From Saprospiraceae bacterium (GTDB lineage Bacteria; Bacteroidota; Bacteroidia; Chitinophagales; Saprospiraceae): 64,000 nt of DNA. The stretch lies in assembly GCA_016716335.1 (NCBI GenBank), contig JADJWN010000002.1, positions 123,262 to 187,261 of the forward strand, written 5' to 3'. This document shows, in pieces, positions 14,111-48,656 of the stretch. Numbering within the stretch: the first letter of the stretch is position 1; the number at the start of each line of letters is the position of its first letter. The notes beneath the pieces are model-generated. The model was not told where the DNA came from. It saw only the letters and a list, made by a program, of their open reading frames with translations, and did no database searches. The position numbers were made by a program, and so were the translations under genes.

Positions 14111-14150
14111 AGGCCAATTATTTTAATAAAGCTTTCAATTTTGAAATGGC

Positions 14151-15521: not shown

Positions 15522-15549
15522 ATCTGTTTTTTATTTTAGCATGTGATGA

Positions 15550-17205
15550 TTATAATATTCTGCCGTCTTCAATATGCACTACTCGCTCAAATTTACTGAA
15601 TATGGACGGATCCTTCGAAATCACGATTAATGTCCAGTGATGTGAGGGGTCAGTGATGTACTCCAGTACACTTTTCCGCTCTGATTCCTCCATTTCTCCC
15701 AGGAAATCGTCGATCATCAGTAATCTGGGGTTTTTCAGAATATTCCGGGCAATAATGATTTTTCTCGTGATGGTTTTGGAAATTTTTCTCCCGGACGGTC
15801 CGATAATGGTATCCAATCCCAAAGGCAATGTCTGCAGAAACTCATCCAGTCCCAGACTGTTGCAGACTTCCATGATCCTTTCCAAAGGAATATTCTTGCC
15901 CAAGGTAAAATTTTCGAGTAACGAACCATAAAAGATACTGTCATCCGATACACATTCGGCAATCATGCTTCTCAATACTGAGATGTTGTAATTTTTCATC
16001 GGAAGTCCGTTGTAGTTGATAGCTCCGGAATCCGGCTCATACAATCCTGTCATCAATGTGAGCAGGGTACTCTTACCTGATCCGTTGGATCCCGTTATAC
16101 AGATTTTCTCTCCCGGTGCGATATCCAGATTGCAGTCTGACAATGTCAGTTCATGAGAATCCGGAAATTTGAAGGATACGTTTCGGATATTTACCGCAAA
16201 ACCCATATCATCTGTCGGTTTGATCTCCAGTCCTTTGTCTTCCTCCAGTTCGAGGTCTGTCACCTGTCCGACTTTTTCGATGGAGGTAAGAAGGTCATAA
16301 ATGACCTCCAGTGTCAAAAGGAGTTTTTCGGAGGAGGAGATAAGCAATAGCACCACGATCTCAGCAGCCACAAACTGACCTATATTCATCTGTTGGTTGA
16401 ATACCAGAATTCCTCCCATAATCAGAAAGGAGGCAGCGACCAGAATTTTAAACAGGATGAACAGGTAATATTGTCTCAGCAGTATCTGGAAGTGATTTTC
16501 TCTCGCTTCTAAGTAAGAGGTGACCAATGCGTCGGTCTTTTTCAGCGGTAGCATGGAGTCACAGGTCAGCCTGAAGGTTGCATTGGTCCGTGCCAGTTCC
16601 TCCAGCCAGTGCGCAACCTTGTATTTATATTTGGATTCTATAAGCGAGGATCTCAGACCTCTCTGAAAAATGTAGGTGCCTATCAGTACAGCCATCAACA
16701 ACAGCATGATACTGAATATGATGAAAAAAGGATGGTAGAATGAAAGCAGAATCAATCCGAAAATAATCTGCAATGCTGAGGTCGAAAATTCAATCAGTAC
16801 CTTGGATAATCCTTTCTGTATGGAAATGGTATCAAAAAACCGGTTCATCAGTTCCGGAGCGTATTTATCATGCAATTCCTTCATCTTGATCCTCGGTATC
16901 CTGAAGGTAAACTCAAAAGCAGATCTGGTAAAAATGTCTTTTTGCAGCGTTTCGGTGATTCTGAGCTGATAAATCTGCATGTATCCGTTAAAGGTATATC
17001 CTGCGAGAACGATAAATATCAATAAAAGCCAGGAGGCGGAAATTTCACCTCCCTGAATCAGATTGATGATAGCCTGGATGCCTAAGGGTAAAGTCAAAGC
17101 TATGATACCACTGAGTGCAGCGAATATGTACAGGTCTCTTATGGCACCGGTATGCAATGCCAGCAATCTGAAAAATCTTTGGACCGGTGTTATATCTGGT
17201 GTCAT
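15550..17205 (-). CDS. ABC exporter (fused TMD-NBD, no C39 peptidase domain)
   Basis: 551 aa with Walker A GSNGSGKST and Walker-B-like LLMIDDF. The ATGA start/stop overlap with the TetR gene indicates one operon. Confidence 0.85.
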   Translation of the reverse strand: MTPDITPVQRFFRLLALHTGAIRDLYIFAALSGIIALTLPLGIQAIINLIQGGEISASWLLLIFIVLAGYTFNGYMQIYQLRITETLQKDIFTRSAFEFTFRIPRIKMKELHDKYAPELMNRFFDTISIQKGLSKVLIEFSTSALQIIFGLILLSFYHPFFIIFSIMLLLMAVLIGTYIFQRGLRSSLIESKYKYKVAHWLEELARTNATFRLTCDSMLPLKKTDALVTSYLEARENHFQILLRQYYLFILFKILVAASFLIMGGILVFNQQMNIGQFVAAEIVVLLLISSSEKLLLTLEVIYDLLTSIEKVGQVTDLELEEDKGLEIKPTDDMGFAVNIRNVSFKFPDSHELTLSDCNLDIAPGEKICITGSNGSGKSTLLTLMTGLYEPDSGAINYNGLPMKNYNISVLRSMIAECVSDDSIFYGSLLENFTLGKNIPLERIMEVCNSLGLDEFLQTLPLGLDTIIGPSGRKISKTITRKIIIARNILKNPRLLMIDDFLGEMEESERKSVLEYITDPSHHWTLIVISKDPSIFSKFERVVHIEDGRIL

Positions 17206-24300: not shown

Positions 24301-24390
24301 GGGCTGATCAGCTCAATTTTGCTGGGCAGACTGGTGACTCCTGTACTGTATTATCTATTGCCTCCTGCGATTCGACCTGCAGAAGATTGA
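21326..24390 (+). CDS. RND (AcrB/CzcA-type) efflux permease, reading frame broken at an A-run
   Basis: ORFs 21326..23176 and 23185..24390 together give about 1017 aa. The frames join (..YYNEFQK/TDAENVSQIMIFL..) with a 1-nt change in the A5 run at 23154-23158. Confidence 0.85.
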
Positions 24391-24537: not shown

Positions 24538-24897
24538 ATGGATATTATCAAAGCAATACACGAGCAATTGACCCCTAAGAGAGATTTTCCGTCTTTCAGA
24601 CCGGGTGATAATATAGCGGTAAGTTACAGAATCATTGAAGGTAACAAGGAGAGAATACAGGTATTCCGCGGGGATGTGATTCAGATCAATGGAGAAGGTG
24701 CCACCAAGACCTTTACCGTGAGAAAAATGTCCAACGGTGTAGGGGTAGAAAGAATAATCCCTTTTGCTTCTCCGGCTATCGCCAGTATCGAAGTGCTGAA
24801 AAGAGGTAAGGTGAGAAGAGCCAAGTTGTACTACCTCAGAGCCCTTACCGGTAAAAAAGCAAAAATCAAGGAAAGAAGATACACAGGTCCCAAATAA
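24538..24897 (+). CDS. rplS: 50S ribosomal protein L19
   Basis: 119 aa. [28 protein letters not shown] is a clear L19 sequence. Confidence 0.95.
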
Positions 24898-26500: not shown

Positions 26501-26566
26501 TTATAACCGGCGTTTGCCTGGATAAGTCGCAGTATATCACTAGGGTAGGTTTCAAAAAAACAGTTC
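26501..26566. repeat. left arm of the first attC-like site (ATAAC-CGGCG-TTTGCC)
   Basis: ATAAC is at 26503-26507 and CGTTTGCCTGG at 26511-26521. The layout matches the arm CCGCTAAC-AGGCG-TTTGGC of the site at 46211-46333 read on the other strand. Confidence 0.45.
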
Positions 26567-26702
26567 ATAAATTTGTAAAAGGATAAGAGCAAAACATCCT
26601 GCGAGAGGAATGCCAAGGAAAAATCCTGAGCATTCTTTTCAAAAGGAAGGATTGAGAGTATTTCTGTTTGCCTTGCAGGAGATTACATAGGAACGGCTGT
26701 TA
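26567..26702 (+). repeat. R module copy 0 (orphan), ending in the GTTATGC core
   Basis: About 85% identical to 37849-37984. It starts with ATAAATTTGT and ends GGAACGGCTGTTA. Confidence 0.85.
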
Positions 26703-26852
26703 TGCACTTGGCTTTATTGTCGTCTGTGTCTTGCGTTTCTTAAAGTATTCTAAAATTTCTTCTTTTGTCATCTTAGATAACTTCTCGCTCAATTTGTCTC
26801 TCTGTTGACGCATAAATTTTACAGCGTCAAATGTTTTCTCATTCGTCTTCAT
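26700..26852 (-). CDS. 50-aa hypothetical protein overlapping the PIN gene stop (possible TA partner)
   Basis: It reads MKTNEKTFDAVKFMRQQRDKLSEKLSKMTKEEILEYFKKRKTQTTIKPSA. It is below the ORF-track size cut-off and overlaps the PIN ORF by 14 nt. Confidence 0.5.
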   Translation of the reverse strand: MKTNEKTFDAVKFMRQQRDKLSEKLSKMTKEEILEYFKKRKTQTTIKPSA

Positions 26853-27303
26853 ATTTTTCAAATTCTCTTGGTGATCGTATTTCTAATTGCTTGTAACCTT
26901 TTTTAATATTGATTGAATTGTAACCCCTTATTCTTTCAATGTTTACTATGTGTTTGAAGTTCCAACTTATTAAAAAGTCTGCACGGTTTATTGTCGCTAA
27001 GGCTATGTGTAAGCAGTCTGCATAACTTGTATACCCCACAACTTTTTCGGTAATGTATTCGGTTGCTAATTCAATTGCTTCATCTGTTATTTCAATAAAC
27101 TCTGTCAGGTCGGCTCTAAGGCTTTTAACAAGTTCTTTTACATTTTCAGGTGCGTTTTCAAGTTCGTCCTGTGTAACTGTCTAGTAGAGAATAATGAATT
27201 CTCCTTTTTTGATTCTGTCAATCAGAGGAATAGTGTGTTCTCTGAACTCATCGTCAAAATGTCCCCCGAAAACAGATGTGTCTATGTATAATCTTTGTTT
27301 CAA
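26839..27303 (-). pseudogene. PIN-domain (VapC-like) toxin gene with an in-frame TAG
   Basis: A TTG start reads KQRLYIDTSVFGG...KKGEFIILY*TVTQDELENAP...LISWNFKHIV. The stop lies at 27181-27183. Confidence 0.7.
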
Positions 27304-27397
27304 TTTCTTTGTTGTCTTATTGTAATCAAAAATACGATTTTTGATTGTTCAATCGGTTGGTTTTATGTCTGATTGTTGTCTTTATAGACATGGGCAT

Positions 27398-27612
27398 AGC
27401 GTCAGACCTTGAAAAAACTCCCCAGCCTGTTCAAAATTATCTTTACAAAGATAGGTTTAAAAACATAATCTTTTCATATATTTACAAAAATTATATATGT
27501 TGATTTTGAGAGGAGAAGACAGGCATCAGATGCAGTTTTACAGTATTAGGGAAGGTATCTTGGAGGGCAATACATTGCTTTTTACAGAAGCATTTGTAGC
27601 TTGAATTCAGGC
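27398..27612 (+). mobile_element. truncated IS1182-like left end (terminal IR, leader and about 27 degenerate transposase codons), unit U1
   Basis: It aligns with 34668-34880 of the intact copy. The distal third is diverged but still homologous. Confidence 0.8.
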
Positions 27613-27750
27613 ATAAATTTGTTGAAGGATAATTTCAAAACATCCTGCGAAAGGAATGCCGGGGAAAAATCCTGAGCAATCTTTTCAAAAGAAAGGATTG
27701 AGATTATTTCCGTTTGCTTGGTAGGGGATTAGATAGGACCGGCTGATATA
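27613..27750 (+). repeat. R module copy 1 (orphan)
   Basis: This is the most diverged copy and ends GGACCGGCTGATA. Confidence 0.8.
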
Positions 27751-27760
27751 AGCCGTTTTT

Positions 27761-28369
27761 CTATTTATCATTTTTGTCTATTAGTTCAAAAATCAGTTCT
27801 GTTAGCGTCTTTAGGTCACTTTCAATTGTTCCTTTCATATACAGTTCGTAAACATTTTCGTTGTCTGGTGGGTTGAGATTTAGTGTCAAGCCTTTTTCTA
27901 ATGCCAACAGTCTTAAAAATTCCCTTTGTGTCCGTCCGTTTCCTTCTCTGAAAGGGTGTAAATAATTGACGTTATCTAAAATTTCCGCTAGTTTCTCGGC
28001 AAGAAGTTTTTTATTTTCTTTCGGAATTATCTTGAAGTCGGCAATTAATTGGTCAATGTATCTGAAAGCATTGTCAAAGAGCGAAGTAGGGAAAAACTGT
28101 TTGCCTTCTTTGCAAATTTCAACTGTCCGCTTTTTGCCTGCCCAAACGTAAATATCCTGAAATAAATATCTGTGAATTTCAAAAAGGCTGTCAATGCCCT
28201 TTATTTTTATAGGTTTTTCGTAAAGTTCTTGAAGTCGTTTTGTTACTGCACCACTCTCAACAAAGAGCAAGACATCAGGGTCGGTAATGCCTTGTAAGTT
28301 CCTTAAAAGTCCTGTCTTAGGGTCAATGTAGGTAAAGTCAGGGTCAATGTATTTATAGGAATTAGACAT
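27761..28369 (-). CDS. Fic/Doc-family toxin (class I FicT-like)
   Basis: The Fic motif is HPFREGNGRTQREF. The likely start is MSNSYKYIDP at 28369, overlapping the antitoxin stop (ATGTCTAA). Confidence 0.8.
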   Translation of the reverse strand: MSNSYKYIDPDFTYIDPKTGLLRNLQGITDPDVLLFVESGAVTKRLQELYEKPIKIKGIDSLFEIHRYLFQDIYVWAGKKRTVEICKEGKQFFPTSLFDNAFRYIDQLIADFKIIPKENKKLLAEKLAEILDNVNYLHPFREGNGRTQREFLRLLALEKGLTLNLNPPDNENVYELYMKGTIESDLKTLTELIFELIDKNDK

Positions 28370-28478
28370 AGGCTTTTTGTTTGGCAAGTGCCACAAGTTC
28401 TGATAGTGATATTTTTCCAGTCACATAGTCTCTTATGATTTCAATACCTTTTGGTGTCGGTTTAAATCCTTCAAACAT
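28362..28478 (-). CDS. VbhA/FicA-like antitoxin (38 aa from the ATG; up to 52 aa if the TTG at 28520 is used)
   Basis: It reads ..ANALGSNMFEGFKPTPKGIEIIRDYVTGKISLSELVALAKQKAYV and contains the inhibitory (S/T)xxxE(G/N) motif as SNMFEG. It is too short for the ORF track. Confidence 0.6.
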   Translation of the reverse strand: MFEGFKPTPKGIEIIRDYVTGKISLSELVALAKQKAYV

Positions 28479-28663
28479 ATTACTCCCCAAGGCATTTGCA
28501 GTGCTTTCAAGCGTTTTCAAGTCTGAAAACTTAACCCCATTATTGTTAGATTGCTTCTGTCTATTTCTATTTTGTTGAACATATTTTTAACTCTTAATTC
28601 TTTCCAAATTTATAAAATATCCATGTCAATTCGTTTGATTGTTGTCGTTTTAAAATGGCATAT

Positions 28664-28878
28664 AACGTCAGACTGTGAAAAAACTCCCCAGCCTGTTCAA
28701 AATTATCTTTACAAAGATAGGTTTAAAAACATAATCTTTTCATATATTTACAAAAATTATATATGTTGATATTGCGAGGACAGGACAGGCATCAGATGCA
28801 GTTTTAAAGTATTGGGGAAGGTATCTTGGAGGGCAATCCAGTGTTTTTTACAGAAGCATTTGTAACTTGAATTCAGAC
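28664..28878 (+). mobile_element. truncated IS1182-like left end, unit U2
   Basis: It shares its structure and breakpoint with U1 and U3. Confidence 0.8.
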
Positions 28879-29012
28879 ATAAATTTGTACAAAGAAAATT
28901 TCAAAACATCTTGCGAAAGGAATGCCGGGGAAAAACCCTGACATCTTTTTCAAAAGAAAAGATTGAGATTATTTCCGTTTGCCTGGCAGGAGATTACATA
29001 GGAACCGATGTT
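28879..29012 (+). repeat. R module copy 2 (orphan), followed by the GTTGGCGG core (29010-29017)
   Basis: About 95% identical to copy 3, with a small deletion in the first hairpin. Confidence 0.85.
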
Positions 29013-29028
29013 GGCGGTAGTGTTACTT

Positions 29029-30150
29029 TCAGAAGTCGGCAAGTTCGTAGTTTGTGCTTCGTCCGCCTTGTTGCTCTTGGCGTAATATTCCCTTTTCAAT
29101 TAAATCCTTAATGTCACGCAATGCAGTGTCGGTTGAACATTTAGCAATCTTTGCCCACTTTGATGATTTCAGTTTTCCATCAAATCCGTCAAAAAGTTTG
29201 TTTAACACTAATCTTTGTCGTTCATTAAACTCAGTGTTTTCGTGAATTTTCCAAAACTCAGTTTTTCGTAATATTTGCTGCAGATTAGTCTCTGTTGCCA
29301 ATAATGAGTTTCTAAGGCAATGTAAAAACCAGTTTAACCAATCTGTAATGTCGCCACTGCTGTGTTGAACCTTTTGCAAAATCTCATAATACTGTTTCCG
29401 TTCAATTAAAATTTGGCTTGACATACTATAATATCTTTCAGTTGTCTTGTCTGCACGGGCAAGCATTAAATCTGAAATTGCTCTTGCAATTCTTCCGTTT
29501 CCATCGTCAAATGGGTGTATGATAATAAACCAGAAATGAGCAATTGCAGATTTTAGAACCGGGTCAATAGGGGAGTTGGCATTAAACCATTTTAAAAACC
29601 TGTCCATTTCTTCTTTTACTCTGTTTGCAGGAACCGCTTCATAGTGAATTTTTTCTTTCCCCATTGCTCCTGAAACTATCTGCATCTCACCTGTTCGATA
29701 GCGTCCGACCTCTATCTTGTGCATTCCGCTGTGGCCTGTCGGGAATAGTGCCGAGTGCCAGCCAAACAGTCGTTTATTTGTCAAAGGTTTCTGATAGTTT
29801 TGAGTTGCATCAAGCATCATTTCAACAACCCCTTCAACGTTTCTATTTGTTGGAACAAGTCCGGCTATGTTAATACCAAGTCTTCTTGCAATTGATGAAC
29901 GAACTTGGTCATAGTCGAGTTTTTCTCCTTCAATTTCAGATGATTTGATTACGTCAAGCGTTAAAGTTGTAAGTGTAGCTTCTTCTTTTGTTGCAAAACC
30001 GAGTGTGTTCATCTGTCCGATAATCTTACCTTGCAAATTTCGGACTTCGCCAAATATGGCATTGATGGCGGTTTCCCGCCAAGTGAAGTCTGTCCAGTTT
30101 TTGTATTCGTAAATGTATTTAGCCACTTTTTCACACAGTTGTTGCGGCAA
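29029..30150 (-). CDS. Fic-family protein with an N-terminal Fic/DOC N domain and a C-terminal winged helix
   Basis: 373 aa. The Fic motif is HPFDDGNGRIARAISD. Confidence 0.85.
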   Translation of the reverse strand: MPQQLCEKVAKYIYEYKNWTDFTWRETAINAIFGEVRNLQGKIIGQMNTLGFATKEEATLTTLTLDVIKSSEIEGEKLDYDQVRSSIARRLGINIAGLVPTNRNVEGVVEMMLDATQNYQKPLTNKRLFGWHSALFPTGHSGMHKIEVGRYRTGEMQIVSGAMGKEKIHYEAVPANRVKEEMDRFLKWFNANSPIDPVLKSAIAHFWFIIIHPFDDGNGRIARAISDLMLARADKTTERYYSMSSQILIERKQYYEILQKVQHSSGDITDWLNWFLHCLRNSLLATETNLQQILRKTEFWKIHENTEFNERQRLVLNKLFDGFDGKLKSSKWAKIAKCSTDTALRDIKDLIEKGILRQEQQGGRSTNYELADF

Positions 30151-30275
30151 ATATAAGCATTATTCTCCGCAAAAATGCGGTGAATGTTAAAATTATTCTC
30201 CGCAAGTCAAACCAATTTTAAGTCAGTTTTTCGAGTCGCCTGTTTAACACCAAGTGCTGGGAAAACATTACCGCT

Positions 30276-30490
30276 AACGTCAGACTGTGAAAAAACTGCC
30301 CCGCCTGTCCAAAATTATCCTTACAAGGATAGGTCTTAAAATATAATCTTTTCATATATTTACAAAAATTATATATGTTGATTTTGAGAGGAGAAGACTG
30401 GCATCAGATGCAGTTTTAAAGTATTGGGGAAGGTATCTTGGAGGGCAATCCAGTGTTTTTTACAGAAGCATTTGTAACTTGAATTCAGAC
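30276..30490 (+). mobile_element. truncated IS1182-like left end, unit U3 (preceded by the CCGCTAAC core at 30271-30278)
   Basis: The IR is AACGTCAGACTGTGAAAAAACT. The degenerate reading QMQF*SIGEGILEGNPVFFTEAFVT compares with QMQFYTLEDRIAPDNPVRFVDAFVD in the intact copy. Confidence 0.85.
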
Positions 30491-30499
30491 ATAAATTTG
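30471..30499 (+). promoter_or_regulatory. candidate Bacteroidota sigma-A promoter (TTTG-N17-TAAATTTG) reading into the R module
   Basis: The -33-like TTTG (30471-30474) lies in the IS1182-like fragment. The -7-like TAnnTTTG (30492-30499) is the first conserved block of R. The same arrangement occurs in U1 and U2. Confidence 0.4.
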
Positions 30500-30626
30500 T
30501 ACAAAGAAAATTTCAAAACATCTTGCGAAAGGAATGCCGGGGAAAAACCCTGAGCATTCTTTTCAAAAGAAAAGATTGAGATTATTTCCGTTTGCCTGGC
30601 AGGAGATTACATAGGAACGGCTGTTA
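30491..30626 (+). repeat. R module copy 3 (orphan), followed by the GTTATGCGG core (30623-30631)
   Basis: Near-identical to 37849-37984. Confidence 0.9.
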
Positions 30627-30650
30627 TGCGGTCGGCTTTAATTTCTTCTT

Positions 30651-39437: not shown

Positions 39438-39647
39438 CTATTGAAGTATTTCGCAAGTCAGCCCCAATTTTTGAATAATAGCTATAATTTCTGTTATTGG
39501 AATGTTCTCGGCTTCAACTCTCAATATCCTGTCGCAATCTTCTAAGTCAAAATTGATTTTGAGTTTTGGAGATATTTCCAGCATCGACAGCTGTACTTTT
39601 TCAGCTACACAAATACAATCTATATGGGTTTTAAAAACTTCAATCAC
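39438..39647 (-). CDS. small hypothetical protein (ferredoxin-like / HMA-like fold suspected)
   Basis: 69 aa, tightly packed in the operon. No metal-binding CxxC motif is present. Confidence 0.4.
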   Translation of the reverse strand: MIEVFKTHIDCICVAEKVQLSMLEISPKLKINFDLEDCDRILRVEAENIPITEIIAIIQKLGLTCEILQ

Positions 39648-39656
39648 AAAATAGAA

Positions 39657-40133
39657 TTATGAAATTTTATAAATGTACTCTTCAATTTCTGATTGTCTTG
39701 TATTAGAAAAGCCTTTATCAGAACCAATTTTAATAAAACCACAACGCTCCAATACTTTTTGAGAGCCGTAATTGTCAAAAGCAACTCGACCGAATAAGTG
39801 TCTGCTGAATTCTATTGATAAAAATAGTTGAAGAGCATTTGTTGCAAAACCCTGACCCCAGTGTTTTTTATCTATCCAATATGTAATTTCATTATCACCG
39901 AACATCACAAATTTTGAAATACTACCAATGATTTGATTGCCCAAAAGAACCGTATGATTGTTAACAGTAGGGTCAGTAAGCAGTCCTTTATATTTTTTAA
40001 TGTATGCTTTTTTATCACTATGGTCGGCAGAATTGAATGCTGCCAAATACTTTGCTTCGTCATCAAGCTGAAACTCAAAAAGTGTTTCGAAGTCGATTAA
40101 CACTGTCTTTCTCAATTGTATTTTACTCTTCAT
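39657..40133 (-). CDS. GNAT-family N-acetyltransferase
   Basis: 158 aa. WIDKKHWGQGFATNALQLFL is a GNAT motif A-like segment. Confidence 0.8.
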   Translation of the reverse strand: MKSKIQLRKTVLIDFETLFEFQLDDEAKYLAAFNSADHSDKKAYIKKYKGLLTDPTVNNHTVLLGNQIIGSISKFVMFGDNEITYWIDKKHWGQGFATNALQLFLSIEFSRHLFGRVAFDNYGSQKVLERCGFIKIGSDKGFSNTRQSEIEEYIYKIS

Positions 40134-40545
40134 TCCCTTTCCTTAGTTTTTTGAATTTGTCAATATTCAAGTGAATGAAACTCCACAAATGCCCGTCTAA
40201 ATCTTCAAGTGTTCTAACTTGCATATAGCCTTCATCAATTATGGCGATTGGTTCTTTTCCACCTGCTTTTATTCCCGTTTCTATGATTTCGTTTACTTTT
40301 TCAAAACACTCCACTGGCAGCGTAAAAGATGCTGAAAGTTGTTTTTGGGTGTCTGATATGGATTTAGCACCGCCAGGATTGAAAAATTCCGTTGTTTGAA
40401 GCATTACCAAGATATGCTCACTCCAAGTCATACAAACTTGATTATCGCCTGTAAACAACGAGTAATTGGAGAAACCCAACTGAGTATAAAAGTTTTTTGA
40501 CTTTTCTAAATCAGTAACGGGCAAGTTGATAAAGATTTGTTTCAT
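40123..40545 (-). CDS. VOC/glyoxalase-family protein
   Basis: 140 aa starting MKQIFINLPVTDLEKSKNFYTQLGF. Confidence 0.75.
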   Translation of the reverse strand: MKQIFINLPVTDLEKSKNFYTQLGFSNYSLFTGDNQVCMTWSEHILVMLQTTEFFNPGGAKSISDTQKQLSASFTLPVECFEKVNEIIETGIKAGGKEPIAIIDEGYMQVRTLEDLDGHLWSFIHLNIDKFKKLRKGNEE

Positions 40546-41135
40546 TTTTCAGCGATTAGTTTTTCTAATACTACTTTTCCTTTAGGAGATATTTCATAAC
40601 CAACAGTGTGGCTGATAGTTAAACCTAAGTTTTTTAGCTTTCTTATATTCAGTTTAAGCCATTCTTTTTCAAAGCCAGTGAGTTTGGCAATTCCAATAGC
40701 GTGCATATTTGGATGGTCGTTAATCGTCAAAAGAATTTGCCTTGTCCAATCACCTTTTTTGCTGTGTTTATCCAAACTTTTCAATTTTTTTATAATGTCA
40801 TTAATTTCTTGCTCGGATAAGTTTGTATGCTCTCTAAGGCTTATTCTTGGGTCTTCGGAATAGTAGCTGATATTAATTCGATAAATGACACCATTGCTGT
40901 TTTTTGGGAAAGATTTTAGTAATTGTTCTTTGGAAGCAAAGCCTGCATTTATTGCATCTGCTTTATTTATGTCACTTTCTGCAATAACTTCTATACTTTT
41001 AATTTCAATCAGGCCAATAGACGTGTGCATCCGTATACCAACCTTTATGGATGGTTTTTGCCACTTTCGGAAAGCCAAAGTGATTGCACCGCTTTTGATT
41101 CCGTGTAGATGAACTTCTTTGAATAACATTTTCAA
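40542..41135 (-). CDS. hypothetical protein, ASCH-like N-terminus plus a winged-helix C-terminus
   Basis: 197 aa. The N-terminal HLHGIKSGAITLAFRKW is ASCH-like. This is a low-certainty call. Confidence 0.4.
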   Translation of the reverse strand: MKMLFKEVHLHGIKSGAITLAFRKWQKPSIKVGIRMHTSIGLIEIKSIEVIAESDINKADAINAGFASKEQLLKSFPKNSNGVIYRINISYYSEDPRISLREHTNLSEQEINDIIKKLKSLDKHSKKGDWTRQILLTINDHPNMHAIGIAKLTGFEKEWLKLNIRKLKNLGLTISHTVGYEISPKGKVVLEKLIAEK

Positions 41136-41974
41136 AGGCTTTTTAGATATTCAACTAAGTCTAAGGGTTTCCTTCTAAGCAATTTCTCAATAGTATTTGA
41201 TGTATGTGAAAACTCACCTGCCTTAATTCCATTTGCCATACTTACCAATAATTCTACAATTGCTAAAGGGATTTGATAGCTAATCAATTCTTCTTTAAAT
41301 AAGTTATCAGCTATATCAATATGTTTCATTTCAGGACTTATCAACTTTGCCAATTCGTCAAAAGTATAGGCTCTGTTTCCTGTAATTTCGTAAATTTGGT
41401 TTTGGTGCGTGTTTTCGGTCAGTACGTTTGCAATGGCTTCCGCAATATCTGTCCTTGAAACAAAACTTACTTTTCCGCTTCCCGATGGATAACGGATTTC
41501 GTTTGTCTGCAAAGCGTTTCCAATTAGTTCGGGTATGGCTTCCATATACATACTGTTTCTGAAAAACGTGTAAGGGATTTTTGTTGCCTTAATCAATTCT
41601 TCAGTATGGTATTGTGCTTCTGTACCTTGGAATAAGGTATTGGGTCGGGCTTGAACCATACTTGTGTAAACAATGTGCTTTATGTTATTTTCAGCCATTG
41701 CTTTTACTACATTTTTTTCCTGCCGTTTGGCTGTTTCTATATCTACTCCAATCGTAGATATTTGCAATGCTTTTTCTACTCCTTTAAAAGCTTGAATAAG
41801 CGTACCGTATTTATTGTAATCGGCTTGTCTGATAATTAGCCCCTTTTGTTTAAAATCGCTTACCTTTTCAGGGTTTCTAACAATAGCAACGATGTTTGTC
41901 GGTGCTACTTTCTGCAATAAAAATTGAATGGCAGCTTTTCCTAAATGTCCGCTTGCTCCTGTTATTGCTATCAT
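41132..41974 (-). CDS. NmrA-like / atypical SDR NAD(P)H-binding protein
   Basis: 280 aa. MIAITGASGHLGKAAIQFLL is a Rossmann GxxGxxG motif. Confidence 0.8.
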   Translation of the reverse strand: MIAITGASGHLGKAAIQFLLQKVAPTNIVAIVRNPEKVSDFKQKGLIIRQADYNKYGTLIQAFKGVEKALQISTIGVDIETAKRQEKNVVKAMAENNIKHIVYTSMVQARPNTLFQGTEAQYHTEELIKATKIPYTFFRNSMYMEAIPELIGNALQTNEIRYPSGSGKVSFVSRTDIAEAIANVLTENTHQNQIYEITGNRAYTFDELAKLISPEMKHIDIADNLFKEELISYQIPLAIVELLVSMANGIKAGEFSHTSNTIEKLLRRKPLDLVEYLKSL

Positions 41975-41994
41975 ATACTTTATCAGGTTATTAT

Positions 41995-42363
41995 TTAATT
42001 TCTAATAAGTGAATTTTCAATTTCCTTCATCCTTGCTAAAACCAATTTCTCAATAATCTTTTTGGGAATAGGCTGTTCTGCACTAAACCGAATTACCGTG
42101 TTTGAGTAATCCAGATGGGAAATTTCCTTCTCTAATTCTTTCAACACCTTGCCTTCCATAATGAAAAAAGACAAATGTGCTTTTGATGACCTAAATCCAA
42201 AGGCTCGCTTCCCTTTGTAGTAAAAGAAAGGAACGCCACGGCTAAGGCGTTCTTCCATTTCAGGAACCAGTTCAAGGATTTGATTTCTTAATGTTGCCAA
42301 TACTTCTTTTTCGTGTGTTGGCAATTTTTCTAAATAGTCTAAAACAACATTCTTGCTATTCAT
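41995..42363 (-). CDS. DUF1801 (YdhG-like) domain protein
   Basis: 122 aa with sequence typical of that family. Confidence 0.55.
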   Translation of the reverse strand: MNSKNVVLDYLEKLPTHEKEVLATLRNQILELVPEMEERLSRGVPFFYYKGKRAFGFRSSKAHLSFFIMEGKVLKELEKEISHLDYSNTVIRFSAEQPIPKKIIEKLVLARMKEIENSLIRN

Positions 42364-43142
42364 CAGTTTAGTTTCAGGAAGTTAAAAATAGGTTTTGCTA
42401 TTTCGTTGGCAGATAAGCCATACGTTGGGTTTTCAAGAACCGCCAGTTTGCAATCGCTTAGGTGTGATGCCACATCTTCGGCAGTTGTCAAACCGTAATG
42501 GGAAGTAATTATAAGTGTTGGAACTTTTATTTTTTTCAAAAGTTCTACTGGTGTGAGTCCGTTATCCAGCATTGCATAATCAACGGGTAGTGTAATGCTA
42601 TTTGCAACGGCTTGTTTCCCACTCTCTGAAACAATAAACTCATCAAGTTCTTTATCACTCATGCCAAAATCTTTGAGAAAAAATTTAACTGCCCCAATCC
42701 TATCGTTTTGATTGAGCAGTTCAATAATCCTTTTATGCTCAATGGCAAACTTTGCTGCTTCTTGCTTATCGTTTTCTGAATTAGGCGTAAAAGGAATATC
42801 CGAAATGATGAGTTTAGAAATCTTCAAGCCTTTTGCAACCGCTCTAATAGCTAAGGCTGAACCTGCTGAGTGTCCATAAAGTATGGGAGCTTCATCACAC
42901 AAAGAAACTATGGCTTCCAAATCTTGTAACTCTGTTTCAATAGTGTGGTTTGTAGAATTGCTGCTTTCGCCACGATTCCTTCTATCGTAGTTGAATACCG
43001 TTAGCTTTTGTGCAAGTTCGGTTGCTAATGGCACATACATTTGATGGTCTGCCAAAGAACCGCCAACTATAATCAATGGCTTGCCGATGCCTGATTTTTC
43101 ATAGGCTATTTGTGTGCCGTCTTTTGAAATTACGAGCTTCAT
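42363..43142 (-). CDS. alpha/beta hydrolase
   Basis: 259 aa. The nucleophile elbow is GHSAG. Confidence 0.8.
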   Translation of the reverse strand: MKLVISKDGTQIAYEKSGIGKPLIIVGGSLADHQMYVPLATELAQKLTVFNYDRRNRGESSNSTNHTIETELQDLEAIVSLCDEAPILYGHSAGSALAIRAVAKGLKISKLIISDIPFTPNSENDKQEAAKFAIEHKRIIELLNQNDRIGAVKFFLKDFGMSDKELDEFIVSESGKQAVANSITLPVDYAMLDNGLTPVELLKKIKVPTLIITSHYGLTTAEDVASHLSDCKLAVLENPTYGLSANEIAKPIFNFLKLN

Positions 43143-43159
43143 TCTGATATTCTTTTAAT

Positions 43160-43555
43160 CTACCAATTTCCTTCACCTTGGTTTACCCATTCAACCAATT
43201 CAATGACTACACCATTTGGGTCTGTTATCATAAAAAGTTTTTCGCCCCACTCTTCGGTTTGTAATGGCATTGAGATGGGAACACCTGCCAAACGAAGTCT
43301 TTCTTCTTCGGCTTCAAGATTGGTTGTTACAAAGGCGAGTATAGTTCCTGCTACCGTTACATTCCGTAAAAATTCAGGAAGTACTTCAATGCCCTTTTGC
43401 ATGTAAATAACATTGATGCCTGACGTTTCATGAATGAGCGAGGCAAAACCGTCAGCCGCCATTTTTTCCTTAAAACCAAAATGTTTGATTAAGAACTCGC
43501 TTGAGGTTTTTACATTGTCCACTGTAAGTGAAACGGAGAGTGATGAAATATTCAT
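43160..43555 (-). CDS. VOC/glyoxalase-family protein
   Basis: The likely start is MNISSLSVSLTVDNVKTSSEF at 43555. Confidence 0.7.
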   Translation of the reverse strand: MNISSLSVSLTVDNVKTSSEFLIKHFGFKEKMAADGFASLIHETSGINVIYMQKGIEVLPEFLRNVTVAGTILAFVTTNLEAEEERLRLAGVPISMPLQTEEWGEKLFMITDPNGVVIELVEWVNQGEGNW

Positions 43556-43624
43556 TATTCTTTTTTTAATTAGAATGCAAATATCACTCTTTGTGAAACC
43601 GTAAAATTGTATCAAAACGACATT

Positions 43625-44434
43625 CTAATCTTTGCTTTCTTGAAGAATTAAATTTTGAAAATATGCCTTTGGATTTAAGCCAGTAAATTCCTTAAAATGT
43701 CGGTTAAGGTGAGCTTGGTCGTAGTAGCCTACGTCAAGGGCAATGTCTATTAGCTTGCTTTCCGATTTATTCACAATAAGTGAAGCATTGGCAATGAACC
43801 GTTCAAATCTCTTAATTTTTAAATAGGTTTTTGCCGAAAAACCTGTCAATTCTTTGAAGTTTCTTTCAAACTGTCGTTGAGACAAAAAGGAATTGGCGAC
43901 TAATTCAGGAACTGAATTAATATGGGTTTGGTCTATTGACAAAATGAGTTTTTCAACGGATAAGTATTTGAGATGTAACTCTTTTAATCTGTTATTGAAA
44001 AAGTCTGTTGCAATGATTGTCTTTTGTTCAAAACTTCGGGCTTCATAAATCTTCTCTGATAGCTCATTACCTTGATACCCCAATATGCTATTTATATCAA
44101 CTGTTTGCTGCGATAACTCATTAGCTGGTATTCTAAGTAAAGTTAGTGCAGCAAGGGGCGAAAAAGTTATACCAAATATTGAGCTTCTGGGTACAGCAGC
44201 AATATAATGTTTAAAGGAAGTTGATTGACCATAAAAACTGCTCCTTGAAACAGGTTCTTCCTTGCCGTCTTGTTTAAGTGAATAAATACCCTGGTCAAAA
44301 AACAGCAGTTCGATTTTACTTGTCGCCACTGAATGATAGACATTTGGTCGTTGAGGTAAGTCCAAGTCGTCACCCCACCAAAATGTGTCAATATATTTTT
44401 TTAAGTGGTCCGGTGGTCTGATTGTTTGGTACAT
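43625..44434 (-). CDS. AraC-family transcriptional regulator
   Basis: 269 aa. The C-terminal HTH reads ..IDIALDVGYYDQAHLNRHFKEFTGLNP. Confidence 0.8.
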   Translation of the reverse strand: MYQTIRPPDHLKKYIDTFWWGDDLDLPQRPNVYHSVATSKIELLFFDQGIYSLKQDGKEEPVSRSSFYGQSTSFKHYIAAVPRSSIFGITFSPLAALTLLRIPANELSQQTVDINSILGYQGNELSEKIYEARSFEQKTIIATDFFNNRLKELHLKYLSVEKLILSIDQTHINSVPELVANSFLSQRQFERNFKELTGFSAKTYLKIKRFERFIANASLIVNKSESKLIDIALDVGYYDQAHLNRHFKEFTGLNPKAYFQNLILQESKD

Positions 44435-44488
44435 TCAAATTTTTAGCTTGTCGAGTTTCTTGTTGTGTCGTCTTTTACAATGCCCGCT

Positions 44489-46210
44489 AACGTCAGACTG
44501 TGAAAAAACTGCCCCGCCTGTCCAAAATTATCCTTACAAAGATAGGTTTAAAAATATAATCATTTCATATATTTACAAAAAATTATATATGTTGATATTG
44601 CGAGGACAAGACAGGTATCAGATGCAGTTTTATACTCTTGAAGACAGGATTGCTCCGGACAATCCTGTAAGATTTGTGGATGCCTTCGTAGATAAAATAG
44701 ATCCGGATAAGCTGGGATTTGCAGTACGTACTGTCAAGACAGAAGGTCGCCCGGCGTATGAGTCAAAATTATTTCTGAAAATATATTTGTACGGCTATCT
44801 GAATGGTATCAGATCAAGCCGGAAGCTGGAGCGAGAGTGCGGACGCAATACCGAGCTGCAATGGCTTACGGGCAATCTGCAGCCCAATTATCACAGCATT
44901 GCGGATTTTCGTAAGGATAATCCGAAAGCACTCAAAGGGTTGTTTAAACTCTTTTGTATTGTTTCTAAAAAAAGAAGCAGAGTTAGTAGCAGGAGAAGTA
45001 GTAGCCATAGATGGTGCCAAAGTCAGAGCGAGCAATAGTAAAAAAGAATAATTACAGTCAGAAGAAAATAGAACGGCATTTTGGCGTATATAGAAGAAAA
45101 GATGAACGAGTATCTGGAACAGTTAGAAGCCAATGATAAGCAGGAAGAGACAGAGAAAATCAATCAAATACAAGAGAAAATAGAAAGACTGAAAGTTAGC
45201 AAGATAAGGTATGAATATCTGGAAGGAGCATTGCAGCAAAGCGGCGACACCCAGCTATCTACAACGGATGCAGATGCCGGGCTCTGCTGGTACAAGGGCA
45301 GGTAGTGGAAGTAAGCTACAATGTACAGGCTGCAGTGGATGAAAAGCATAAATTGGTAATAGGTACCCAAACCATCAATCGCAACGACAGGAATGCACTG
45401 AGTGATATAGCGACAGAGAGCAAAGAAAATATGGGCTCCGAACAAATCACCGTATTGGCTGACAAAGGGTATCACAACGGGGAGAGATCAGTAAGTGTAC
45501 AGAAGCCGGCATTACGACGATAGTAGCCCCGTCAGAGATAGTCAACAGTAATGATAAAGGCACCACACCGGAGTATCTGTGGATAAGTTTAAGTATGATG
45601 AAAGCACCGATAGCTACACCTGTCCGCAAGGAGAGAAACTGGAGACCAAAGGCACGTGGCACAAAAAGACCAGAGACCGGGACAGCTACCAATACAAAAA
45701 ATACCGTACACCTGCCTGTAAGACCTGTCCGGTAAAGCATTTGTGTACGGGCAGGGCCAAAGGAGGCAGAGAAATTGAAAGATCAGAATATGCCCCAGCC
45801 GTACAAGCCAACAATCAACGGTATAAAGAAAATACGGCACTGTACAGAAAACGACAAGAGATCAACGAGCACATATTTGGAACGATAAAACGAGGGTGGG
45901 GTTATGGACACACCAACCTGCGGGGACTGGAAAAGTGAATGGGGAATATGCCCTGATAATGACGGTATATAATATGAAGCGGAGCATGCATATTCTGGGT
46001 ATGCCCGAAATTCCTGAAAACTCAAAACTGGAAACCGGACTACGAAAAGTAGTCAAATTTCCCCTAAAAATCATTTTAGAGCATATGATGTATTACAGAT
46101 GGTCACGATAAATATTTTGGTAGCATAAATAGCCCTAAAACGCATCTATCAGGAAGCCATATAGAGGGCCATAGAAAGCAAAAAATTGAGTTTTTTCACA
46201 GCCTGACGTT
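44489..46210 (+). mobile_element. IS1182-family insertion sequence, decayed copy (transposase in at least six fragments)
   Basis: Near-identical to 34668-36390. At least eight single-base indels separate them, most in homopolymers. It is preceded by the CCGCTAAC core (44484-44491). Confidence 0.85.
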
Positions 46211-46333
46211 TTGGCGCTTGGCGCAGTGGCGGATTTCGGAGCACAAAATTGTCAATACACCACAAATGTTGATGCGAGGCGGAATGTTCAATTAACCACG
46301 TCACCCGCCATTGAGCCAAACGCCTGTTAGCGG
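46211..46333. repeat. body and right arm of an attC-like site split by the IS1182 copy
   Basis: With the IS removed, the site reads CCGCTAAC-G-TTTTGGC...TGGCGG ... CCGCCA..GCCAAA-CGCCT-GTTAGCGG. That gives paired outer (8 bp) and inner boxes over about 135 bp. Confidence 0.6.
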
Positions 46334-46344
46334 TTCGGCTTTCT

Positions 46345-47249
46345 TTATGTTGTCGGTAGTTTCTTAGCAATTTTTTTCAAGTTTTTAATTTGTTTGTTTT
46401 CTGTCAATTGGTATTCGTTGAGAAAGTTAAAATAATTGTCCAAGTGGTTTGATTTTTTTGGCTTAGTTAAAACAGTTTTCAATTTCTCGTCATTTGTTAC
46501 TTGAAAGTCATAGCCATATGAGTTCAAAAACATTAAAACTGTCAAATGAAAAAAATGAAGTCTGTCCCAACGTTTTCGTTCTTCTTTCGGAGATAAACTG
46601 TCAAAAAACAAAAACAGCCTGTTAATTTTCGGTGCAATAGTTTTTATCTCATCTAAATACTCCGAAAATGATTTTACACCTGTCGCTGTAATTAAACTGT
46701 CTGCGAGCAAATCAAACTCATTCCTGAAAAAATGGTCGTCAGTTTTGTTGCCGTCAGCATTAAGTCCTTCAAGAAAAGTGAGGTCGCAAAACATTCTCGG
46801 AAATACATTTAGAAATTTTACAAACTCTAAATCTTCTTTTCCTGCAATGGTAGTGTCAAGAAATATCATTTCTTTTTGAATTTTCTTAGTCCACGCAAAA
46901 ATTGCTAAATGTCTGTAAACGAATGAATGAAAGTAATAATGTTTGTTTAAGTAGTCGCCTTCAATGTGTAACCATTCTTCCTGATGTTTATTAGCAAAGT
47001 TCCACATTCTGTGATTGAAATCTTCGCAAGCTGTCAGTAAATGAACTTTGTATTTGGCTAAAACTTCTTTGATTTTTTTTCTTTGGTCAAATTTATGTTC
47101 TGTGTCAAGTTTTGACCGTAATATTTTGGTGTCAATCTAGTTTTGGTTAGCAAAGTCAAGAAAAACACCACAACTGTCGTAATGGCACTGATTATTACTG
47201 GCAGCACTTTTTCGTTCGTCAAAAAATCCATAATATTTAAAAGTGTCAT
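46345..47249 (-). CDS. hypothetical N-terminally membrane-anchored protein, frame broken at an A8 run
   Basis: ORFs 47058..47249 (TM helix) and 46345..47007 join as ..NLTKEKKIKEVLAKYKVHLLTACEDFNHRMWNF.. if the T8 run at 47073-47080 is T9. Confidence 0.5.
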
Positions 47250-47629
47250 AATGCTTGTTGTCTTTTTGGTTAGTGTCGTCTTTTAAGCTGACCACTAACT
47301 TACTTATTTCTACAACAATCTTACGACACACTTGCGGTTTTTCCAAATTTTTCCTCACCAATTCTGATTATTGTCCTTATTTATTCAATCTATCTAAGGT
47401 GCTTACCTTCGGGTAGGTGACTACGGTTATTACAGGGGTTTAATTCCTATTAATGATCATATGCCTTATGATACTGAACTTTTGCAAACCGGCATATGAA
47501 AGATGGGCAATAGTATACTTTCCCCGGTCTTTCGGGGTCACTTGTTATGAGATCTCCATTTCCCGAAGCAGTGACAGGGGCTCCATTATATCTCATTTAC
47601 ATATTTTTAGAGACTTTCGACGATAGACC

Positions 47630-47676
47630 TTCGGAAAATATAATAGCCATCCATGGCATCCGCCAGGATGGCTATT
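47630..47676 (-). terminator. rho-independent terminator after the 2OG-oxygenase gene
   Basis: The stem aatagccatcc / ggatggctatt is followed by a U-rich tract on the minus strand. Confidence 0.6.
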
Positions 47677-47702
47677 GTCCTGTATATACGTAAGTATTAT
47701 TC

Positions 47703-48656
47703 TTACTTTTTCAATCCAATCTCGCGGAGTCGCTCATTGAGATATTCGCCTGCGGTGATGGGTGCATAGGCCAGAGGTCTCTCCGCAGTCACGGTCGAGG
47801 GCAGACAGCTCAGGTCCATCGCACTTTTGGGATGCAGGAAGAAGGGGATGGACAATCTCGGTACATGCCACTGATCTCTGGGTGGGTTGACTACCCGGTG
47901 GGTGGTGGACTTGAGATAATTGTTGGTAAGTCTCTGCAGCATATCCCCTACATTGATGACGATTTCGCCATCTTCGGGGAGTATATCAAGCCATTCATTA
48001 TCAGAGGTAAGCAGCTGCAGACCACCGGCAGAGGCGCCTACCAGCAGTGTGATGAGATTGATATCTTCATGCTGCTCTGCCCGGATGGCTGAGGCCGGCT
48101 CTTGTGTAATAGGAGGATAATGGATGGATCGGAGGATGCTGTTGCCATCTTTTATTTTATCATCAAAATAATGCTCATCCAATCCCAGATGAATGGCTAT
48201 AGCCCTGAGCAGATGTGCACCAGCTTCTTCAAATGCCTTATACAGTTCCTTGCCGGTTGTATAAAATTCAGGAGTTTCTTCTACCATCACATTATCCGGA
48301 TATTCGGATTTGAGCGGATGGTCTGCATCCACAAACTGTCCGATCTGAAAAAACTCCTTAAGGTCTGCCACCTTCGACTGCTTGGCGTGCTCTTTACCAA
48401 AGGAAGTATATCCCCGCTGTCCTGCAAGTCCGGCAATTTCATATTTTGACTTAATTTCTACCGGCAGGGAAAAAAACTTTTTCGACGCATCGTAGAAAGC
48501 ATCAATTTTTTCTTTGGGTATGCCATGGTTGATGACTCCCACAAATCCTACTTCGTGAAATGCTCTGCCAAGCTCCTCTACAAATGCTTTTCTCTCGGCA
48601 TCTGTACCATGCACAAATTTTGACAGATCTACTAAGGGTATTGCTCTTTTTGTCAT
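47703..48656 (-). CDS. 2OG-Fe(II) oxygenase (isopenicillin-N-synthase-like family)
   Basis: 317 aa containing ..HEDINLITLL.. and ..STTHRV.., an HxD...H facial triad and RxS. Confidence 0.85.
   Translation of the reverse strand: MTKRAIPLVDLSKFVHGTDAERKAFVEELGRAFHEVGFVGVINHGIPKEKIDAFYDASKKFFSLPVEIKSKYEIAGLAGQRGYTSFGKEHAKQSKVADLKEFFQIGQFVDADHPLKSEYPDNVMVEETPEFYTTGKELYKAFEEAGAHLLRAIAIHLGLDEHYFDDKIKDGNSILRSIHYPPITQEPASAIRAEQHEDINLITLLVGASAGGLQLLTSDNEWLDILPEDGEIVINVGDMLQRLTNNYLKSTTHRVVNPPRDQWHVPRLSIPFFLHPKSAMDLSCLPSTVTAERPLAYAPITAGEYLNERLREIGLKK

Follow-up and report, generated by a model that had tools for sequence, protein, structure and literature searches.

How did the chromosome of a Saprospiraceae bacterium come to carry, between two conserved flanks, some 21 kb of co-oriented gene blocks that differ from strain to strain, with no recombinase beside them? 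The region in question lies at 26.5-47.3 kb of a 64-kb stretch of contig JADJWN010000002.1 (the whole stretch is referred to as the window), and a preliminary description had taken it for an integron-like array of about nine cassettes bounded by attC-like palindromes. Our analysis makes it likely that the region is a decayed array on the chromosome of a Saprospiraceae-like host, with eight mobile gene cassettes, assembled by site-specific recombination at folded sites, ridden with insertion sequences (ISs) and lacking a recombinase. Three checks that could have overturned the integron-like interpretation, namely a model of the sites, their dispersal as ordinary repeats and the variation between strains, all turned out in its favor.

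Two sites in the window retain a folded hairpin

The cores listed in the preliminary description are all present at, or within 1 nt of, the positions noted there, and they are confined to 26.5-47.3 kb. The motif CGCTAAC occurs seven times on both strands against 2.9 expected, with all seven copies inside these limits and six of the seven at block boundaries. The proposal that attC-like palindromes bound the blocks stands for the cores, for the co-orientation of the blocks and for two sites, B (44484-46333) and C (34665-37988), which alone in the window have kept an attC-type hairpin interior, both of them interrupted by ISs; it does not stand for six further sites, which are IS scars. When its IS is removed (44484-44491 joined to 46208-46333), site B forms a strong imperfect hairpin (dG -29.3 kcal/mol, z -3.4, 0 of 200 shuffles as good), as had been predicted for this IS1182-split site. 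Sites B and C are homologous (nhmmer E = 2e-7), and their stems differ by three compensated changes. A covariance model of the family, run over the 64 kb with filters off, matches only B (134.6 bits, E 2e-31) and C (58.5 bits, E 1.6e-12); the family hidden Markov model (HMM) likewise matches only these two, and the remaining 43 kb of the window hold no copy of the ~130-nt element. At gathering thresholds, Rfam gave no match in the whole window, and at E <= 1 it gave none in 36300-38050, including no attC-type match.

The palindrome at 38561-38680, previously regarded as the one uninterrupted site, folds no better than shuffled sequences (z -1.0 and -0.7), has GTA instead of GTT in one core and is matched by neither the family HMM nor the family covariance model. 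It is probably not a working cassette boundary. Because the right core of C matches the left core of B at 10 of 10 positions, the interval 38008-44434 reads as one 12-gene cassette with the 120-bp palindrome inside it, and since end-matching places the palindrome there, the array comprises eight cassettes rather than about nine.

The hairpins belong to a family of structured and polar sites

A pattern made from the positions common to B and C retrieved at least 120 metagenome stretches from sludge, lake and other sources (loci compared here bear L numbers). The hairpin interior of ~118 nt is ~95% conserved. The bordering cores, xxxTAAC and GTTAxxx, are variable, and each side shows ~90 distinct flanks. 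The HMM detects at least two copies, 0.7-6 kb apart, in 43 of the 120 listed loci, and these are co-oriented in 42 of the 43 (L199 also has an inverted copy). An alignment of 40 family members, diverged ones included, revealed compensatory changes at 13 of 22 predicted base pairs, with 94.3% paired cells versus 78.9% in shuffles (0 of 500 as good) and 32-48% when the partners were slid. In the common layout, a 5-bp core stem is followed by a one-sided spacer of 5 nt, a stem of 17 pairs with single-base bulges and an unstructured, variable centre of ~70 nt. Sites of other lineages, represented by Flavobacterium marginilacus, a 3.5-Mb genome and a metagenome-assembled genome (MAG) of Paludibacteraceae, differ in sequence and have the same layout. 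The ~130-nt sites are, in other words, imperfect palindromes with AAC/GTT cores, bulges and a variable centre, conserved in structure more than in sequence, as is characteristic of attC sites.

The family is also polar. On the plus strand of the window, which is the strand opposite the open reading frames (ORFs), the alignment holds 78 G·T versus 7 A·C cells; site B reaches 134.6 bits with the covariance model on this strand versus 14.1 bits on the minus strand, and 90% of neighboring coding sequence lies on the strand opposite the model. As far as sequence comparison can tell, it is probably this strand, opposite the ORFs, that folds and serves as substrate. This polarity bears on the proposal that the hairpins act in the cassette transcripts as RNA elements, for instance as terminators or stabilizers of 3' untranslated regions, and not as DNA recombination sites. 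Although they are strongly structured and directly follow stop codons, their wobbles lie on the strand antisense to the genes, so that an mRNA version would carry A·C mismatches; moreover, no T run follows the hairpin, Rfam has no match, and the cassette-specific inverted ends and the reassortment at the cores described below would be left unexplained. We consider this proposal exceedingly improbable. The B/C hairpin was also considered as the 5' non-coding (guide-RNA) end of an IS110 element and rejected, as no IS110 transposase lies within 2.5 kb of any of the 123 metagenome copies.

As a separate observation, the site at L120:5451-5530 is broken after ...CCGCCATT in the 3' half of the stem and continues into unrelated sequence (ATCTCATTTGGCTCTC...), with the same junction in L182. 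Another insertion, or else a rearrangement at a different place in the site, would account for the break.

Cassettes carry their own inverted ends and reassort at the cores

The arrays follow a simple rule: what lies just right of one site recurs, reverse-complemented, just left of the following site. At least seven of nine bases after GTT are identical in 59% of adjacent-site pairs, versus 1.6% of random pairs and 2.2% of the two flanks of the same site (p = 2e-12). Because the flanks of adjacent sites match, each cassette must have inverted ends of its own, ~15 nt long; at about position 11 the two ends recurrently differ, G against A, which makes a G·T pair on the plus strand. In the window, the pairing of a cassette with its own other end is the best or near-best for most cassettes (for example, GTTATGCGGTCGGCTTTAAT versus GTTAGCGGTCAGCTTAAATG and GTTGGCGGTAGTGTT versus GTTAGCGGTAATGTT). 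These ends explain the conserved leaders that had been noticed beyond the cores, which are outer stems of the recombination site and differ from cassette to cassette.

The same comparison separates these sites from dispersed repeats of the REP type (repetitive extragenic palindromes) or MITE type (miniature inverted-repeat transposable elements). Complementarity between the flanks of one site does not exceed that of random pairs, so the sites lack a MITE-type terminal inverted repeat; a MITE or REP would be expected to give the reverse pattern. Nor is the element dispersed through the window; it is absent from the other 43 kb and forms co-oriented arrays elsewhere.

Cassettes were further found in changing company. 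Thirteen pairs of loci share a cassette (up to 2.7 kb) and are unrelated in sequence from AAC onward. One such cassette follows an attC in L156 and in L162 comes straight after a recombinase gene, at an attI-like junction; the junction lies at AAC|G. Another was found behind two different attC families. The window and the loci L007 and L008 have both flanks in common (95-99% identity) and differ in content (21 versus 5.4 versus 2.6 kb), with three different first cassettes joined at the same flank nucleotide. In addition, five near-identical metagenome contigs end at the AAC core 47297-47299, four at 47300 and one at 47296. The cassette-wise strain variation expected of an integron-like array is thereby confirmed, and the exchanged unit is a discrete ORF plus attC, with the exchange at the GTT of the downstream core resolved to about ±2 nt. 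Contig stops at 26704 were initially candidates for a further polymorphism and are explained instead by a 31-mer that also occurs in the copy at 30.6 kb.

The sites have structure and polarity and occur in arrays, and the cassettes, each with its own inverted ends, reassort at AAC|G. We conclude that the array was assembled by site-specific recombination at ~130-nt folded sites. Each runs from a ...TAAC core through an unpaired spacer of 1-5 nt into a long stem with bulges, whose two halves enclose a variable centre, and ends with a GTTA... core. In a circular cassette, the ~15-nt inverted ends would extend the outer stem. The exchange point is AAC|G on the plus strand, or C|GTT when read along the genes, and coincides with that of integron attC sites.

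Two insertion sequence families occupy opposite ends of the sites

The sites and cassettes of the window are as follows, in order of position.

26503-26705, plus strand: terminal (last) site, with left core ATAAC (26503-26507) and right core GTTATGC (26699-26705); interior consisting of a native remnant to ~26552, common to L007, and an IS110 right-end remnant (~26563-26698)
26706-27395, minus strand: cassette 8 (last), a degenerate pseudogene with ORF fragments only; also in strain L008
27397-27750, plus strand: scarred site T1a, ~225 nt of an IS1182-like left end fused to ~145 nt of an IS110-like right end; attC interior lost, degenerate cores CATAGC and GATATAAG
27761-28520, minus strand: cassette 7, Fic toxin (211 aa) and VbhA antitoxin (52 aa)
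28663-29017, plus strand: scarred site T1b, IS1182 left end and IS110 right end between TAAC and GTTGGCGG
29029-30150, minus strand: cassette 6, DUF4172-Fic protein (373 aa)
30271-30631, plus strand: scarred site T1c, IS1182 left end and IS110 right end between CCGCTAAC and GTTATGCGG
30651-31892, minus strand: cassette 5, a 413-aa protein without a confident family match; ends match over ~17 nt (GTTATGCGGTCGGCTTTAAT versus GTTAGCGGTCAGCTTAAATG)
31939-32321, plus strand: scarred site T2a, IS1182-like left end and an unidentified right part of 160 nt
32339-33559, minus strand: cassette 4, two AHSA1/SRPBCC proteins (138 and 181 aa) and an ArsR-type helix-turn-helix regulator (72 aa)
33692-34075, plus strand: scarred site T2b, composed as T2a
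34108-34608, minus strand: cassette 3, a 166-aa protein without a family match
34665-37988, plus strand: site C, doubly interrupted, with left core GTTAAC (34665-34670), IS1182-like element (34671-36387, intact 487-aa transposase), attC interior (36388-36505), IS110-family element (36506-37980, frameshifted transposase) and right core GTTAGCGG (37981-37988)
38008-44434, minus strand: cassette 2, a single 12-gene unit whose outer ends match 10/10 (GTTAGCGGGC), in the order GNAT, palindrome 38561-38680, 138-aa ORF, DoxX, GNAT, glyoxalase/Ble-like, ASCH-like, NmrA, DUF1801, alpha/beta hydrolase, glyoxalase, AraC
38561-38680, strand undefined: AT-rich imperfect palindrome of 120 bp, probably within cassette 2
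38727-39143, minus strand: the 138-aa ORF of cassette 2, with no family assigned, overlapping the next gene in part and possibly spurious
44484-46333, plus strand: site B, with left core CCGCTAAC (44484-44491), IS1182-like copy (44492-46207, frameshifted transposase), consensus-type attC interior (46208-46325) and right core GTTAGCGG (46326-46333)
46345-47249, minus strand: cassette 1 (first), proteins of 220 and 63 aa, neither with a family match
47273-47299, plus strand: start of the first cassette, reading GTTAGTGGTCAGCTTAAAAGACGACAC on the minus strand; junction with the conserved chromosomal flank at 47299|47300

All non-IS genes of the 21-kb region are on the minus strand, as previously described for every credible ORF; the exceptions to that description are the three IS transposase genes (two IS1182-like and one of the IS110 family), which are on the plus strand. 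The degenerate site 27397-27750 and the IS110 element 36506-37980 are additions to the preliminary description.

The two IS1182-like elements (34671-36387 and 44492-46207, 1.72 kb each) encode DUF772, DDE_Tnp_1 and DDE_Tnp_1_6 domains, have inverted repeats GTCAGACTGTGAAAAAACT and always lie between the AAC and the G of a site. The left end of this element abuts AAC at seven window sites, with fragments at 27401, 28667, 30279, 31947 and 33700. An independent relative with 65% protein identity occupies the same position of a diverged site in another metagenome contig (L141:7000-8735), and the element looks like a site-specific parasite of attC-type sites. The IS110-family element (36506-37980), with DEDD_Tnp_IS110 and Transposase_20 domains, a frameshifted transposase and a 3' non-coding region of 460 nt, interrupts site C at T|GTT, and at five sites its right end directly adjoins GTT. 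The right-end copies (26563-26698, 27609-27744, 28875-29009, 30487-30622 and 37845-37980) are ~145 nt long and rich in small hairpins. This piece could encode a guide (seek/bridge) RNA; the six copies, which are too similar to one another, show no covariation, and Rfam gave no match. An unrelated IS110-family element (L230:16554-18274) lies a few nucleotides inside the same end of an attC in the Paludibacteraceae array.

Elements of the IS1111-attC group insert at a fixed position and in a fixed orientation in attC sites (PMC11187229). Similar to this group and to group IIC-attC introns, the IS110-family element of the window has a fixed position in attC-type sites, at T|GTT, and the Paludibacteraceae array provides another element inside an attC. 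Its DEDD transposase is of the IS110/IS1111 type. In contrast to the IS1111-attC group, a second and unrelated family is involved here, an IS1182-like DDE element that targets the other core at AAC|G. We know of no report of attC targeting by IS1182-family elements.

Six of the nine window sites are IS chimeras of 200-380 bp with 61-95% mutual identity. In the three 350-bp repeats (27397, 28663 and 30271), ~225 nt of the IS1182 left end are joined to the last ~145 nt of the IS110 element, and in the two 380-bp repeats (31939 and 33692), the IS1182 left end is followed by the unidentified 160 nt. The right part of the two T2 scars and the IS110 element have no relatives outside this species among the loci compared. 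Every site of the window has been hit by the two site-specific ISs, the IS1182-like one at AAC|G and the IS110-family one at T|GTT, so that none is left intact. A deletion between both ISs of a doubly occupied site such as C would yield the 350-bp scar, and at six sites later deletions took most or all of the hairpin, with ~45 nt of native interior retained in the terminal site. Since no recombinase lies within 64 kb, the sites have been hit by ISs and the hairpins deleted, the array is probably frozen; it persists as a strain-variable store of accessory genes, including the Fic/VbhA toxin-antitoxin pair, GNATs, glyoxalases and regulators. The window thus displays the decay of an array, in which two unrelated IS families, one per core junction, jointly erase the recombination sites.

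Such a prevalence of IS sequence raises the possibility of a variable island in which modules are separated by IS-derived, MITE-like repeats, the cores being target or terminal sequences of the ISs and the strain differences arising by homologous recombination between repeats. The six chimeric sites would fit this scenario, as would the fact that L008 and the window diverge inside an IS scar. It is largely refuted by the position of the cores and cassette-specific inverted ends, which lie outside IS sequence and are retained where no IS is present in more than 100 other contigs, by the lack of complementarity between the two flanks of one site beyond that of random pairs, and by identical cassettes that occur both beside an IS-free attI-like junction and beside IS-free attC sites, with the junction at AAC|G. 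We therefore regard it as very improbable and retain the assembly of the array by site-specific recombination.

Two further non-coding segments were noted at such sites. The unidentified 160-nt segment (32090-32313 and 33905-34067; L008:13073-13227), which makes up the right half of the two 380-bp scars, has a GAAAAGCC...GGCTTTTC stem, with GGACGGCTTAAT at its end, before GTT. In F. marginilacus (CP113975.3), the same non-coding insertion of ~520-560 nt (GTTATGCGTAATTGGCAG...CCCGATCAC|GTTA) directly follows the GTT core at three successive sites (L227:12440-12960, 13620-14140 and 15080-15600), as another site-specific passenger.

A recombinase without the IntI additional domain adjoins related arrays

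The absence of an integrase from the window, which had been noted before, was confirmed for tyrosine recombinases in general by Pfam scans of 40 ORFs and by tblastn searches with IntI1 and four family-specific recombinases, the search for this organism covering the 64-kb window.

Related loci are more informative. A tblastn search with IntI1 gave matches in 11 of the 120 listed loci. In six of them (L206, L179, L128, L181, L162 and L171), the recombinase gene lies upstream of the cassettes and is co-oriented with them, followed by unrelated first cassettes (encoding OLD-like ATPase, TIR-TPR, reverse-transcriptase-like and transglutaminase-like proteins) and then by a site. The first cassette starts with GTT, and the bases after this GTT match the far end of that same cassette. 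A TATACGCAAT...TTGCGTATA motif lies just upstream of the junction in L128, L162 and L181; it is absent from the first junction of the window, which has no intI gene either. Searching from the protein side, we found the same arrangement in three more genomes, those of F. marginilacus (CP113975.3, next to prfA), the 3.5-Mb genome and the Paludibacteraceae MAG.

The array-adjacent recombinases match NF040815 ("site-specific tyrosine recombinase/integron integrase") at about its cut-off. With TIGR02249, they reach 203-216 bits, short of the cut-off of 265, and the match falls into two stretches that leave out model positions ~180-240; with the XerC/XerD profiles they score 180-200 bits against cut-offs of ~330. 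Compared to IntI1, they have gaps of ~40-44 residues at the additional domain. The closest solved structure is that of archaeal XerA, followed by VchIntIA and then XerD. No recombinase with the IntI additional domain adjoined any array; those of L206, L179, L128, L146 and L158 are below the TIGR02249 cut-off, while the IntI1 matches in L181, L162, L114, L120, L171 and L119 were partial or outside the TIGR02249 scan. A canonical integron integrase, with its additional domain around patch III, was found neither in the window nor among the recombinases examined next to related arrays. Wherever the start of an array is visible, in six metagenome contigs and three genomes from three orders, the adjacent recombinase is of the domain-less type, with the GTT junction just downstream. 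Most likely, the enzyme of the related arrays is a Xer/IntI-like recombinase without the IntI additional domain, encoded immediately upstream of and co-oriented with the cassettes, as gene order and profile matches suggest.

Two of the related loci carry additional genes next to the recombinase. In L146 (694-2834, gene orientation), an IS91-type transposase gene and its own tyrosine recombinase gene lie directly downstream of a site, and this recombinase differs in type from the array-associated one. The possibility that array-adjacent recombinases are integrase partners of IS91-family elements holds for L146 only, as the others are followed by unrelated first cassettes. In the Paludibacteraceae array, a gene of the NusG family (UpxY antiterminator type; L230:10923-11438) lies between the recombinase gene and the first cassette, and its product might promote read-through transcription of the array.

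The window array could also be an ordinary cluster of attC sites lacking integron integrases (CALIN), with a canonical IntI, additional domain included, encoded elsewhere in the genome, beyond the 64 kb searched, or lost, and the domain-less recombinases as bystanders. Site architecture, AAC/GTT cores, cassette polarity and cassette content are all integron-like, and integrons have been reported in Bacteroidota at the phylum level (PMC8618304). However, the domain-less type adjoins every related array with a visible start, and the examined recombinases fall short of the TIGR02249 cut-off without a single array-adjoining enzyme that has the additional domain. We consider an ordinary CALIN unlikely.

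Several observations weigh against our own account, in which domain-less recombinases serve arrays of cassettes with folded sites such as the one in the window. About 40% of adjacent-site pairs in the metagenome arrays lack matching ends, plausibly because intermediate sites escaped detection. The break falls inside the hairpin, not at the core, in 3 of the 13 reassortment pairs. The presence of a near-identical IS1182/IS110 scar on three cassettes is unexplained; homologous exchange between sites is a guess. The adjacency of recombinase and array is an association seen in sequence and, because the window has no recombinase, the link of its array to the domain-less enzyme rests on related contigs. 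The term integron-like is nevertheless appropriate, whereas integron would claim more than has been shown, because the adjoining recombinase lacks the domain that defines integron integrases.

Comparison with known gene-capture systems

The integron features used for comparison were taken in part from PMC9668308 and PMC4889954. Similar to sedentary chromosomal integrons, such as that of Vibrio cholerae with its VCR-type attC sites, the arrays described here are long and co-oriented and consist mostly of small accessory genes, among them toxin-antitoxin cassettes. Their attC-type sites are lineage-specific, highly conserved and ~125-135 nt long, with AAC/GTT cores, a bulged stem and a variable centre; exchange occurs at the GTT before the next cassette, related loci have an attI-type junction beside the recombinase, and there is evidence for folding of the strand opposite the ORFs. 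In contrast to sedentary integrons, the recombinase lacks the IntI additional domain and is co-oriented with the cassettes rather than divergent, the outer stems are ~15 bp long and cassette-specific, the spacer is strongly asymmetric (5 nt versus 1 nt) and the hosts are Bacteroidota.

With CALINs, the window array shares the absence of a nearby recombinase. A CALIN requires at least two attC sites within ~4 kb or less and no integrase nearby. The window retains two recognizable sites, B and C, which are 9.7 kb apart and both split by ISs; the other sites are reduced to their cores. An automatic integron caller would probably report nothing for this array.

Gene modules bounded by Xer-type recombinase sites are also known, as in the pdif modules of Acinetobacter plasmids and in integrative mobile elements exploiting Xer (IMEX). 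Their sites are double-stranded, dif-like sequences of 28 bp used by the housekeeping XerC/D recombinases. The sites described here differ from these in being folded hairpins of 130-160 nt with covariation, arranged in tandem arrays beside a dedicated recombinase.

Among Bacteroidetes, the IntegronFinder 2.0 survey reported only In0 elements and one complete integron, in Salinibacter (PMC9024848), and a passage in a 2024 preprint (10.1101/2024.07.02.601686) cites IntegronFinder 2.0 for Bacteroidota as an example of clades earlier found without any integrons. In the literature on integrons in Saprospiraceae, Flavobacteria and Bacteroidota, we found no description of the present system; subscription journals were thinly covered, and an earlier description is possible.

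We give about an even chance to the broader proposition that Bacteroidota (Flavobacteriales, Saprospiraceae/Chitinophagales and Bacteroidales) have a widespread integron-like gene-capture class of their own, with a domain-less recombinase encoded upstream of the cassettes and in their orientation, cassettes with folded sites of 130-160 nt whose extended stems are specific to each cassette, and its own site-specific parasites, IS1182-like at one core and IS110-like at the other. According to a passage in PMC9668308 that cites Messier & Roy (2001), the IntI additional domain is held necessary for attC recombination. Surveys that rest on an integrase so defined describe Bacteroidota as nearly free of integrons (PMC9024848). 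If the proposition is true, the recombination of cassettes at folded sites does not need the domain thought to define integron integrases, the class would have branched off early or reinvented the integron independently, and it would go undetected by standard integron finders. Arrays run by the domain-less recombinase would constitute an overlooked, large reservoir of cassettes in a major phylum of soil, water, sludge and gut bacteria; the first cassettes met include defense-type genes for TIR, reverse-transcriptase and ATPase proteins. They would also make the route from Xer to integron integrase testable with a living intermediate or a convergent case, and detection tools would need a second recombinase profile along with site models for each lineage.

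Chromosomal context of the array

The 21-kb region is bounded on one side by the L19 gene rplS (24538-24897, plus strand) and two small conserved genes, and on the other by genes for a 2OG-Fe(II) oxygenase (47703-48656, minus strand) and iPGM. Its G+C content is lower than that of the flanks, and no tRNA was found in it. A scan of genome contigs showed the flanking oxygenase to be 85-86% identical to oxygenases of Saprospiraceae MAGs. Among the Saprospiraceae species representatives, synteny around the oxygenase gene is not conserved, and the scan yielded neither array information nor a recombinase. Look-ups of exact protein sequences gave no matches for p199, the 220-aa cassette protein and the IS1182 transposase, and for a GNAT and the 413-aa protein gave matches only in the same strain context.

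Between the oxygenase gene and the first cassette lies a 400-nt non-coding stretch (47300-47700) with several hairpins, which is conserved in L007 and L008 and belongs to no Rfam family at gathering thresholds; it could hold the promoter of the array or a small RNA. On the opposite side, the window has an AcrB-type gene for a resistance-nodulation-division pump (21326-24390) in two pieces, ORFs of 616 and 401 aa. The related contigs L007-L013 have it as one gene of 1021 aa, and the split copy is a pseudogene or a sequencing error.

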